Shown here one piece after another: positions 24,394 through 27,339 of a stretch of 64,000 nucleotides of DNA (positions are counted from its first letter, which is position 1; each line of letters opens with the position of its first letter). The notes under the pieces are model-generated. The model was not told the origin of the DNA. It saw nothing but the letters and a program-made list of their open reading frames with translations, and did no database searches. The stretch lies in sequence record NC_028881.1; one strand, 5' to 3'. Made by a program: the position numbers and the translations under genes. Source of the stretch: Escherichia phage vb_EcoM-VR5.

Positions 24394-24437
24394 TTTATTA
24401 TCCTTTGGTTTGTTTTCGTATTATTTGGTACAGGTCT

Positions 24438-24466
24438 ATAATAACACAACCTGTACCAAAGTAAAA
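24438..24466 (-). promoter_or_regulatory. early promoter / PeSL-like cassette
   Basis: Minus strand TTTTAC-(17 nt)-TATTAT embedded in inverted repeat ggtacagg...cctgtacc; 5' flank shared with the cassette at 24834. Confidence 0.5.
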
Positions 24467-24469
24467 CAT

Positions 24470-24802: not shown

Positions 24803-24833
24803 TTTATTCTCCAGTTTGTTTTCGTATTATTTG

Positions 24834-24862
24834 GTACATGTCTATAGTATCATGCCTACCGG
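24834..24862 (-). promoter_or_regulatory. early promoter / PeSL-like cassette
   Basis: Minus strand GTGTAC-(17 nt)-TACTAT overlapping ctatagtatcatg core. Confidence 0.5.
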
Positions 24863-24901
24863 AGATGTACACCCTTTTTTTAAAGATTTAGAAACAAAAA
24901 T

Positions 24902-24919
24902 GGGACTCCGAAGAGTCCC
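24902..24919 (-). terminator. intrinsic terminator hairpin
   Basis: gggactc-cgaa-gagtccc followed on the minus strand by a T-rich tract. Confidence 0.6.
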
Positions 24920-24924
24920 ATAAC

Positions 24925-25086
24925 TTATGCAATCACTTTACCGAAGCAAGCAGCATCTGCACGCAATACTGCACGAGCACGAGCTTGAAGCTTATCAACT
25001 ACCTGATTGATACGCTTGTTGGACGCACGCTTGTAACCAGCGCGTTTAGAGGTCCCGTCAACTACTTTAACTTCTTTCTTAGCCAT
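24925..25086 (-). CDS. small highly basic protein
   Basis: 53-aa ORF (MAKKEVKVVDGTSKRAGYKRASNKRINQVV...), below the ORF-track cutoff; Lys/Arg-rich; terminator immediately downstream. Confidence 0.4.
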   Translation of the reverse strand: MAKKEVKVVDGTSKRAGYKRASNKRINQVVDKLQARARAVLRADAACFGKVIA

Positions 25087-25481
25087 TATAAAATCTCTTT
25101 AAATGAAAATGCAGGACTTATTGGCATTGCCTGCGCAAGCCCTCAAGGGGAACATAGGTTTTGGATATTTAACGACAGGATAACCATAAACCTCGTCATC
25201 ATACTTATAGCTCTTATCTGTTGCACACCGTTAGCTTAAAGGTTCCGGGTTCGATTTCTCGAGGATAAGATATATACTGATGGGTATATAGGCCTTGAGG
25301 CGTACTCCCGATTGGCCATCACCTCGGGGTAGCATGCACTTGCCGCTATAAAATAACATTCAAGAGGTACACCGTAAAACTGCCGGGGTCTTAAAACTAT
25401 AATGATTCTCAAATCATTAATCAGACAGTTCGACGGCTCCTCGATTTTCTAGCCGCACTAAGGTAGCGAATCACCTAAAAC
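25087..25481. other. ORF-free intergenic island with multiple predicted helices (candidate structured RNA or decayed gene)
   Basis: About 390 bp without a credible ORF in an otherwise tightly packed cluster; nested inverted repeats (cctcaagg 25141 / ccttgagg 25293; tcttatc 25213 / gataaga 25264; tatatac 25271 / gtatata 25284). Confidence 0.3.
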
Positions 25482-25730
25482 TTATTTAAGGGTAATAACA
25501 AAATGACGTACTGCTTTACGAGCTGCAGAAGCCAAAGGCTTAGCAAATTTCAGTTCATCTTTAGCTTCCAGCTCAGAAGCCAGGGCAGCCTGTACCGGGT
25601 TCAGATGTTTGAAATAACGCAGGATTTCCAGTGCTTCGGCTTCAACATCAATAGATGCGCCATAGTTTTCGTGACCGTTGTTCCAAGCGTTGCGTTGCAG
25701 TTCAAGAGCGTGATTCAGATGTTTGTTCAT
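25482..25730 (-). CDS. rIII: rIII lysis-inhibition accessory protein
   Basis: 82-aa ORF, same length as T4 rIII, directly downstream of gene 31. Confidence 0.65.
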   Translation of the reverse strand: MNKHLNHALELQRNAWNNGHENYGASIDVEAEALEILRYFKHLNPVQAALASELEAKDELKFAKPLASAARKAVRHFVITLK

Positions 25731-25876
25731 TTTAGTTTCTCAATTCGAGATAAAGATTGGTGGACACGTTCTTCTGAATTTCACTTCCTTTCGGCAAGTC
25801 TCTCAGTTGTAGTCCACCGCTTAGAATTGTTCGGTTAACTTATTATTCCGACACCCAATTCATATTATTATTTATA

Positions 25877-26200
25877 TCACTTATAAAGACACGGAATAGC
25901 TTTATAGTGACAAGTAACGAATTTCTGTTTAATTTCTTTAGGCTGTTTAATACCTAATGCAACTAATGGATGAGGCACGTTAGCAATCTTACCGACAGGA
26001 AGTGGGGTCAAATCACCTACTTCACAAAAATCTTCAGGGACATCAGGTCCTACAGAATAAACTTCACAGAGTTCAGGGATTTCACCTTGATGAAGTTTGC
26101 CAATAACGATACCTGATGCAGTAGTTTCTTCATCACCAGCTTGTTTTGGTTCGGAAACGAGAATAATATATTCTCCGACCGCTTTAATAGGAAGTTCCAT
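25877..26200 (-). CDS. 31: co-chaperonin gp31 (GroES analogue)
   Basis: 107 aa; strong match to T4 gp31 ([59 protein letters not shown]). Confidence 0.9.
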
Positions 26201-26560: not shown

Positions 26561-26794
26561 TTATTCCAAGACAGTTTTAATAGTGGTTGCATTACGCTCT
26601 TTTAGAGCCCTTAATAGGTTATGGCAATTATCAAGAATAGGCACCGTTTTATATTTCATGTCGGCATAAACCCACTCAGATTTATAGTACGATTTCCACC
26701 GAGAGAAAAAGTACTTTTTGTATTCTACTGAAAAGGCTACTAAGCTTTCGCCTTTTGAGTTCAGACCTGAAAACTTAACTATTCGAAATTTCAT
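26561..26794 (-). CDS. hypothetical protein (31.x position)
   Basis: 77-aa ORF. Confidence 0.45.
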   Translation of the reverse strand: MKFRIVKFSGLNSKGESLVAFSVEYKKYFFSRWKSYYKSEWVYADMKYKTVPILDNCHNLLRALKERNATTIKTVLE

Positions 26795-27339
26795 TATTCA
26801 CCACAATAGTTTTGAATTGATTCCCAGTTCAGAGAACGGAGACCTGTACGGTTATACTGGATAACTTCAATCCCTGATTCACGGAGGATATCATCCCATC
26901 CTTCAGGATTTCGGTCATAGAGTTCAGCATAAACCAATGTTTTAATTCCGGACTGCGCAATAGACTTAGCACAATCTGCACACGGAGATAATGTCACGTA
27001 CATCGTAGCTCCGTCAATAGAACTTCCGGTACGGGCCGCAAACAAAATAGCGTTCAGTTCGGCGTGGATTTCATTTTTAGATGACCATGCGGCATGAGCC
27101 ATACGATGTTCTTTAAGAAGAATTGATTTATGCGACATTCGTGCCGTGTCATACACAACCCGAGTCCAGTCTTGTTCAGCCGCATGGTCACAACAGTTAA
27201 CACCACCGGAAGGCGAACCATTATACCCTGTAGAAATAATACGGCCATTCTTTTCGATAACTGCACCCACTTTCCATGAACAACATTTTGATTCTTGAGA
27301 AATCAGATATGCAATCTGAAGGTATGTGCTTGCTTTCAT
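26794..27339 (-). CDS. cd: dCMP deaminase
   Basis: 181 aa; cytidine/dCMP deaminase zinc motifs HAELNAILFAA and PCADC present. Confidence 0.85.
   Translation of the reverse strand: MKASTYLQIAYLISQESKCCSWKVGAVIEKNGRIISTGYNGSPSGGVNCCDHAAEQDWTRVVYDTARMSHKSILLKEHRMAHAAWSSKNEIHAELNAILFAARTGSSIDGATMYVTLSPCADCAKSIAQSGIKTLVYAELYDRNPEGWDDILRESGIEVIQYNRTGLRSLNWESIQNYCGE

Follow-up and report, generated by a model that had tools for sequence, protein, structure and literature searches.

Between the stop codon of rIII and the start codon of gene 30.9, Escherichia phage vb_EcoM-VR5 has a gap of 395 bp (25087-25481), which raises the question of what is kept in an interval that no gene seems to occupy. The gap is part of a 64,000-nt stretch of DNA (NC_028881.1), analysed here in full and called the window, which belongs to a T4-like (Dhakavirus-type) phage with its local genes on the minus strand; positions 24900-25750 are ~95-96% identical to Dhakavirus phages CLB_P2, NC-G, JS10 and JS98 over 96% of the length. 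The T4 counterpart of the gap has only 244 bp. An initial annotation considered the gap an ORF-free island in a tightly packed cluster, and proposed that three pairs of complementary segments within it reflected a folded RNA, with a regulatory leader or a decayed gene as other options. The absence of a credible ORF was confirmed; the ORFs of at least 25 aa present in the 395 bp encode 26-84 aa. The description of the cluster as tightly packed is only partly true, since there are other intergenic gaps of 76-146 bp nearby (24394-24469, 24803-24924 and 25731-25876).

The genes and features of the region are collected in Table 1. The annotation of rIII is also present at the JS10, JS98 and T4 counterparts of this locus. 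Downstream of 30.9, the terminator is strong, with a 9-bp stem, a UUCG loop and a U-run, and it lies within what appears to be a single transcription unit heading toward gene 30. Upstream, the 146-bp gap between gene 31 and rIII (25731-25876) is a second ORF-free stretch, and it contains a late-promoter motif, TATAAATA, at 25869-25876 on the minus strand.

Table 1. Features of the rIII-30.9 region, in the 5′ to 3′ order of the minus strand, and of a second ORF-free region; positions are those of the window unless a locus (L) is named
Feature	Position	Strand	Remarks
cd	26794-27339	-	further upstream of the gap
gene 31	25877-26200	-	further upstream of the gap
rIII, lysis-inhibition accessory protein, 82 aa	25482-25730	-	upstream neighbour; PHROG 1457, E = 1e-42
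rIII-side spacer	25352-25481	-	common to T4; 85-93% identical to T4 and ATK47
conserved promoter-like motif GATTCGCTACCTTAGTGCGGCTAGAAAAT	25444-25472	-	once in the window
GGAG (RegB-type site by consensus)	25438-25441	-	
AU-rich hairpin followed by a U-run	25390-25419	-	
TTTACG-N17-TATTTT, promoter-like	25353-25383	-	stops about 7 nt short of P2
structured RNA domain, 147 nt	25205-25351	-	first to last base of P1; sole copy in the window
P1, 5′ strand UUAUAGC	25345-25351	-	pairs with GCUAUAA 25205-25211; closes the domain
P2-P3 arm	25291-25344	-	covariation
P2	25342-25344 with 25291-25293	-	C-G to U-A in phage fHe-Yen9-01
conserved 8/6-nt internal loop	AAGUGCAU 25334-25341, CUCAAG 25294-25299	-	
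P3	25322-25333 with 25300-25315	-	main helix; 9/10 pairs compensatory
P3 loop UGAUGG	25316-25321	-	kissing contact with P4 loop CCAUCA 25278-25283
P4 hairpin	25271-25290	-	stem 25284-25290 with 25271-25277, loop 25278-25283; covariation
P5 domain	25212-25270	-	P5 enclosing P6 and P7
P5	25264-25270 with 25212-25218	-	5/7 pairs compensatory
P6, loop GAAA	25259-25262 with 25251-25254	-	4/4 pairs compensatory
P7	25246-25250 with 25225-25230	-	2/5 pairs compensatory
P7 15-nt loop GAACCUUUAAGCUAA	25231-25245	-	invariant or nearly so
junction GCAACA	25219-25224	-	invariant or nearly so
30.9-side spacer	25087-25204	-	common to T4; 78-81% identical to T4 and ATK47, counted with 30.9
conserved motif GGTTATCCTGTCGTTAAATAT	25165-25185	-	once in the window
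hairpin GUUCCCCUUGAGGGCUUG	25136-25153	-	once in the window
hairpin GCAGG...CCUGC	25111-25134	-	
gene 30.9, 53 aa, basic, no assigned function	24925-25086	-	downstream neighbour; PHROG 1427, E = 6.5e-26
intrinsic terminator	24900-24921	-	directly 3′ of 30.9; terminator scan
second region	L009 1105-1452	-	
second region	L089 1198-1446		
second region	L086 1372-1600		
second region	L087 1369-1572		
second region	L088 1300-1570		

Does the gap contain a folded RNA? Taken as a whole, the island folds no better than chance when dinucleotide shuffles are used as the background (z = -1.29 for the minus strand and -0.88 for the plus strand), and the proposal of a folded RNA does not hold for the entire 395 bp. 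By contrast, it is strongly supported for the central 147 nt, on the minus strand. Single-sequence folding of this core alone is only modestly better than that of shuffled sequences (z = -1.97), and its centroid fold gives the same helices that are described below. As the z scores of both the island and the core are weak, the evidence for the structure is comparative rather than thermodynamic.

For this comparison, copies of the element were gathered from GenBank phages, IMG/VR and metagenomes, and a covariance model was built from a hand-curated, seven-helix alignment of 24 sequences. In this alignment, 95.9% of the cells at paired positions are paired and there are 22 compensatory pairs, while in controls in which the 3′ partner was slid by 1-3 columns pairing drops to 27-43%. 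The covariance model finds a single match in the window (25198-25356, 189.7 bits, E about 1e-38) and also recovered divergent copies from Yersinia phage fHe-Yen9-01, EcS1, JC221 and the Slopekvirus phages K41P2 and phiEap-3. With 28 distinct homologues, the paired cells amount to 97.1%, compensatory changes are found in 33 of the 45 pairs, every helix has at least one double change, and the covariation score is 0.402, compared with 0.046-0.070 in the slid-register controls. None of 500 shuffles of the 28-copy alignment reached the observed values; given that the sequences are related, this control overstates significance, and the slid registers together with the independent compensatory solutions are the stronger evidence. 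The initial annotation had made the folded RNA depend on a structure conserved in relatives, and such a structure was found. Very probably, the centre of the gap is a true structured RNA whose family has not been catalogued before, and the comparisons demonstrate purifying selection on a complex, P1-closed RNA.

Two of the three complementary pairs noticed originally are part of this structure and are backed by covariation, namely 25213/25264, which is P5, and 25271/25284, which is P4. The third, 25141/25293, has no comparative support: 25291-25293 belongs to P2, and 25140-25150 is a small hairpin of its own, with no co-variation between its sequence and the 25293 side. There is an 8-nt complementarity between both segments in the window, yet no co-variation was observed in EcL8g, EcS1, JC221 or locus L011.

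The helices P1, P2, P4 and P5 abut without any linker nucleotide and form a four-way junction, and P5 opens to a three-way junction with P6 and P7. All seven pairs of P1 have changed on both sides across lineages (for instance, UAAAC/GUUUA, CAUAC/GUAUG and AGAUUAG/CUAAUUU are found), and P4 is paired in 98% of the cells, with four of its seven pairs being compensatory. The 3′ domain of ~45 nt, comprising P7, its 15-nt loop and GCAACA, is almost invariant across phage genera. In fact, CTGTTGCACACCGTTAGC is identical in the first six copies that were aligned, and the most divergent copies, recovered later, differ from it at 1-2 positions; in the whole RNA, about 35 unpaired nucleotides are invariant. 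A GNRA tetraloop on P6 was also considered as a conserved tertiary element and was rejected, as the loop is mostly GAAA and elsewhere UAAA, UAAU, GUAA or longer.

A scan for co-variation among the unpaired columns singled out the loops of P3 and P4 (L3 and L4). These loops are perfectly complementary in every lineage, through six different sequence solutions (CGAUGG/CCAUCG, UGAUGG/CCAUCA, CUAUGG/CCAUAG, CAAUGA/UCAUUG, UUGUAUU/AAUACAA and UGCAUU/AAUGCA); within a lineage they can form 6-7 Watson-Crick pairs, whereas mismatched combinations of the variants only give 2-5. Four of the six L3-L4 pairs are compensatory and 96.8% of the cells are paired. The geometry of the contact appears to fit intramolecular pairing: in the model that we favour, P2 and P4 would stack to form 10 bp, beside the 12-bp P3, which would be folded back through the internal loop.

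The strand of the RNA can be deduced from the exceptions to Watson-Crick pairing. The pairs of the alignment include 44 G·U cells but not a single A·C cell, which shows that the functional strand is the minus one, the sense strand of rIII and 30.9. Supporting this assignment, RNAalifold yielded -35.6 kcal/mol and 20 compensatory pairs for the minus strand, versus -28.2 kcal/mol and 15 pairs for the plus strand. The plus strand had been considered at first for the T-loop-like sequence GGTTCGATT, and was ruled out by the G·U/A·C count and the energy; this tRNA look-alike is on the strand opposite to the RNA and is part of helices P6 and P7, and ARAGORN detected no tRNA or tmRNA genes in the window. 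The same asymmetry bears on the idea that the repeats arose by chance or act at the DNA level (as a recombination hot spot, an origin or a cruciform), with no RNA function. Such an idea could draw on the shuffle-like folding of the whole island, on an “ori type 2 repeat” annotated nearby in one record and on the mosaic of shuffled modules that makes up the region, but a double-stranded DNA function could not produce a bias of G·U over A·C, and the drop in pairing in slid registers also speaks against this idea; we find it scarcely credible.

A protein-coding origin fares no better. Two minus-strand ORFs, of 42 and 58 aa, overlap the centre of the RNA, and several deposited genomes annotate a “1,4-alpha-glucan branching enzyme” or hypothetical proteins of 34-58 aa over the homologous stretch (e.g., in CLB_P2 and TNG87, in records H25, H39, H56 and H61, and at L001 1830-2006 and L005 1521-1625). 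These facts might speak for an unannotated small protein gene or for a decayed one. However, neither ORF has a PHROG match, no frame is open in all the copies, their differences in length are not multiples of three, and the variable sites show no 3-nt periodicity, being distributed 8/7/7 over the codon phases. Additionally, the substitutions are double changes that preserve base pairs. The frameshifted coding remnant whose detection would have spoken against an RNA was not found, the decayed gene suggested originally can practically be discarded together with any small protein gene, and the protein annotations over the RNA are very probably spurious.

Is the RNA already known under another name? 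Covariance models of the Rfam type, a search recommended in the initial annotation, matched no catalogued family on the element: the 4227 models of Rfam 15 gave no matches in the whole window at the gathering threshold, the 951-nt region searched at E <= 10 produced only a chance-level match to wcaG outside the element (in the 25731-25876 gap, 14.8 bits, E = 6.2), and three homologous loci searched at E <= 1 gave nothing on the element. Complementarity between the RNA and the rest of the 64 kb is at chance level (at most 11 nt), and we found no report in the literature on the sequence of this RNA or on an RNA motif at rIII of T4-like phages.

The RNA is present in about 430 genomes of T4-like phages, T4 itself being without it. 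BLAST searches with the 146-nt core retrieved 409 phage records, with a single copy each and 84-99% identity, from phages of Escherichia, Shigella, Klebsiella, Enterobacter, Citrobacter, Salmonella, Yersinia, Serratia, Edwardsiella and Erwinia; for comparison, rIII is found in 1122 records. In 42 other loci, the covariance model likewise detected a single copy each. The identity of the element to the window copy is 81-99% in most lineages, compared with 66-94% for rIII and 70-98% for 30.9. For instance, in Klebsiella phage TNG87 the segment 25211-25345 has 94.8% identity, while rIII has 71% and 30.9 has 77%. In EcS1 (70%) and fHe-Yen9-01 (64%), the element is no better conserved than the flanking genes. 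Among distant phages that carry rIII (Acinetobacter, Providencia), there is either no room for the element or no match to the covariance model. An origin in the host, or mimicry of a host RNA, was also considered and rejected: 5,426 E. coli genomes gave no BLAST match, 72,556 plasmids gave only two short matches at chance level and 185,579 genomes of bacterial species gave no pattern match. Across the phage, E. coli, plasmid and bacterial searches, the RNA was detected in phage or phage-like metagenome contigs alone.

The genomes without the RNA define its limits. It is absent from T4, LZ, ATK47 and five close relatives from IMG/VR whose rIII is 94-95% identical. T4 and ATK47 align with both flanks of the gap and are without ~25203-25355, and at the two genomic sites described here (from the T4 and RB43 comparisons) the break-points between presence and absence coincide with the outer ends of P1. 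The comparisons show that the RNA has been gained or lost as a whole unit bounded by P1. In ATK47, the sequence is kept up to the 5′ half of P1 and is followed by 43 unrelated nucleotides (L003 1317-1361), which suggests that loss, rather than gain, took place there; the site looks like the scar of a replacement or a deletion. The fragment of the 5′ edge that ATK47 (a Mosigvirus) retains is ..GAATGTATTTTATAC, and its 43 nt contain ACCAACCACG, a sequence also found beside the element in phage EcL8g.

The position of the RNA is fixed with respect to neither neighbour. From the stop codon of rIII to P1 there are between 5 nt (Moon/Merlin-type phages) and 131 nt, and from P1 to the ATG of 30.9 there are 82-177 nt with differing sequence modules between them. 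Moreover, the RNA lies away from rIII altogether in JC221 and in 19 records of Slopekvirus or related phages. At this second site the order is uvsY, uvsY.-2, a small ORF and then the RNA on their strand, with the convergent uvsW.1 opposite. The RNA starts about 30 nt after the stop codon of the small ORF in K41P2, and in JC221 the last clearly annotated upstream gene (uvsY.-1-like) ends about 290 nt from it; RB43 and Lw1 have the same uvsY locus without the RNA, with break-points at P1. The RNA occupies two unrelated genomic sites; at either of them it closely follows a coding region and is always in the sense orientation.

These two contexts weigh on the possibility of a riboswitch or another leader controlling 30.9 and the genes after it, which is the role that the initial annotation had contemplated. 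A conserved, P1-closed, aptamer-like domain upstream of 30.9 in more than 400 genomes would be compatible with this role, as would the promoter-like motif directly upstream and the hairpin directly downstream of the element in Jiaodavirus-type phages. However, the variable distance to 30.9 and the different modules in it leave no conserved expression platform, there is neither a terminator nor an alternative structure sequestering the RBS, no riboswitch of Rfam matches, and the 20 genomes of the Slopekvirus/JC221 type have no downstream gene on the same strand. Control of 30.9 by this RNA is consequently very unlikely.

The upstream side offers a different possibility, that of a cis-acting element in the 3′ UTR or between cistrons, which would protect or insulate the rIII or uvsY mRNA or mark a processing boundary in it, with no function in trans. 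Its location on the sense strand shortly after rIII or, in K41P2, after the small ORF agrees with this proposal, and so do the GGAG (RegB-type site) and the small hairpins around the RNA. Nevertheless, a simple hairpin would suffice for such tasks, which the 45-nt domain, the four-way junction and the kissing loop exceed; the upstream gene differs between the two contexts, and T4 expresses rIII without the RNA. We consider a purely cis-acting role quite unlikely.

On the rIII side of the RNA, a promoter-like module of the form GGTGAnTCGCTACC..AGTGC..TAGAAAAT is conserved, and closer to the element the sequence TTTACG-N17-TATTTT matches the consensus of T4-type early promoters, TTTACW-N17-TAYWAT (PMC4122927); T4 is without its -10 part. 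If it were real and active, transcription would start near the boundary between P1 and P2, omitting the 5′ strand of P1, and, were it real, the Mot-box-like motif that directly precedes the element in Klebsiella phages would have the same consequence. As they omit the 5′ strand of P1, these motifs are a poor fit to a simple dedicated gene. There are no annotated promoters for this gap in the records of T4, LZ and ATK47, and the ATK47 record only has the 10-bp “ori type 2 repeat” there. A duplication of the 3′ end of rIII just upstream of the element was also considered and rejected, as no significant similarity to the end of rIII in the window itself was observed; this upstream sequence has an unproven resemblance to Moon-type phages. 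The 30.9-side spacer also holds the Shine-Dalgarno region of 30.9. No covariation was found in the stems of either spacer, and the flanks might contain promoters of 30.9, sites for RegB or RNase E and a weak terminator of rIII.

The small modules around the element, namely the promoter-like motif and a GUACCCnnnnGGG hairpin, change their order between genera. Those at 25444-25472 and 25136-25153 accompany the RNA in both genomic contexts, in different orders, and JS10 and CLB_P2, the closest relatives of the window, are without the former. At the second site there is another conserved ORF-free region, in the gap between uvsY and uvsW.1, which was found in 168 records with 84-88% identity, among them JC221, Slopekvirus, RB43, Lw1 and many phages of Cronobacter, Klebsiella and Enterobacter. 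It has the GUACCCnnnnGGG hairpin at its start, a core of ~90 nt (GGCGUACyCuUUUGCGCCGUCCGAU..UUCGGCGGGGUGAUUG..) and a strong intrinsic terminator at its end; five aligned sequences show a few compensatory pairs in the core, and this region may be another sRNA gene.

To bring these observations together, we propose that the island is bipartite, with flanks of ordinary T4-type spacer and a centre encoding an RNA of about 150 nt that is self-contained and compactly folded. The RNA would be transcribed by read-through from the promoters that serve the upstream gene. Co-transcription with this gene is suggested by the strand, by the distance of 5 nt from the stop codon in several genera and by the early, middle and late promoters that T4 rIII is stated to have (PMC9409239). 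The RNA would then act as an independent module instead of controlling 30.9; the invariant nucleotides in its single-stranded segments and junctions would probably be presented to a partner (a protein, an RNA or a small molecule), and this putative partner would be conserved across Enterobacterales hosts or T4-like phages. As T4 and some very close relatives are without the RNA, its function should be accessory rather than essential, and the two unrelated contexts, the absence of a fixed spacing and its dispensability in T4 point to a self-contained accessory module. The whole statement, that of an uncatalogued structured RNA acting as an independent accessory noncoding module, is in our opinion reasonably probable.

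Complexity of this kind is usual in ribozymes, aptamers and RNAs that bind specific proteins, and the first of these deserves separate consideration. A self-cleaving or catalytic RNA could process the rIII-30.9 or uvsY transcript and separate the fates of the upstream and downstream messages. Ribozyme cores typically have multi-helix junctions, loop-loop contacts and invariant unpaired nucleotides, of which this RNA has some 35. The RNA would, moreover, be embedded between genes in long sense transcripts; it has no terminator of its own, and in Moon-type phages a stop codon precedes it by only 5 nt. Small ribozymes in phage genomes are similarly patchy in their distribution, and this RNA is dispensable. 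However, no ribozyme of Rfam matched even at E <= 10, the size of about 150 nt exceeds that of most small self-cleaving RNAs, the sequences do not reveal a site of cleavage, and P1 joins both ends of the molecule, so that the fold is explained without cleavage. A processing ribozyme therefore seems unlikely to us. A more tentative possibility is that the RNA inaugurates a new functional class among T4-type phages, either as a novel ribozyme or as a decoy or aptamer that would bind a factor of the host or the phage; an accessory role in anti-defence or host takeover would then be a candidate, and would fit the patchy, cassette-like distribution. The presence and absence of the RNA among near-identical phages provide natural deletion mutants for its study, and many of its carriers are phages of Klebsiella, E. 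coli, Enterobacter and Shigella such as those employed in therapy work.

Among known RNAs, the aptamers of the purine-riboswitch type also have side-by-side helices with loop-loop pairing, closure by P1 and highly conserved junction nucleotides. The likeness (P1, a junction and two arms with pairing loops) is architectural only: the new RNA has a four-way instead of a three-way junction, is twice the size, has an extra three-way sub-domain, occupies two genomic sites without an expression platform and has no match in Rfam. In the self-cleaving hairpin and twister-sister ribozymes, a four-way junction joins arms that touch each other through tertiary contacts, and neighbouring arms have conserved internal loops. 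The four-way junction, the internal loop and the inter-arm contact are alike in the new RNA, but there is no similarity in sequence or by covariance model, and the contact is a kissing loop of 6-7 Watson-Crick pairs. The pRNA of phage phi29 has a helical junction and two complementary loops that co-vary, whose pairing between molecules builds a ring. It resembles the new RNA as a phage-encoded noncoding molecule with a junction and co-varying loop complementarity, and, by analogy, L3 and L4 might pair between molecules to give a multimer; the new RNA differs from pRNA in having no Rfam match, and packaging of the T4 type is not known to involve an RNA.

T4-like phages have noncoding elements of their own with which this RNA may be compared. 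PeSL and PmSL are mobile regulatory cassettes, short noncoding modules found at the break-points of the modular shuffling of these genomes (PMC2839356, PMC4122927), and PeSLs combine a sigma-70-like early promoter with a terminator stem-loop, in many copies per genome (PMC4122927). The spacer around the new RNA is likewise a mosaic of small modules whose order varies by genus. However, the RNA itself cannot be considered a PeSL cassette, as it has seven helices and one copy in 64 kb, and scans detected no promoter or terminator inside the element. The closest parallel in T4 is provided by rnaC and rnaD, noncoding and structured RNAs of 119-139 nt that are derived from longer transcripts and have no known role (PMC3014915). 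They are, like the new RNA, structured noncoding RNAs encoded by a T4-type phage, but both are located within the tRNA cluster, and rnaC has a tRNA-like T-arm at its end. Homology was ruled out with the covariance model, whose best hit in the tRNA/rnaC/rnaD region of T4, with filters off, had 5.6 bits (E = 1.1). Finally, T4 carries rnaC and rnaD and yet is without the new RNA. Few viruses have been studied as thoroughly as T4 and its relatives. The new RNA was probably overlooked because T4 is without it and because annotators leave the gap empty or call spurious small ORFs in it; in about 430 phage records of GenBank, a noncoding-RNA feature should replace these hypothetical proteins.
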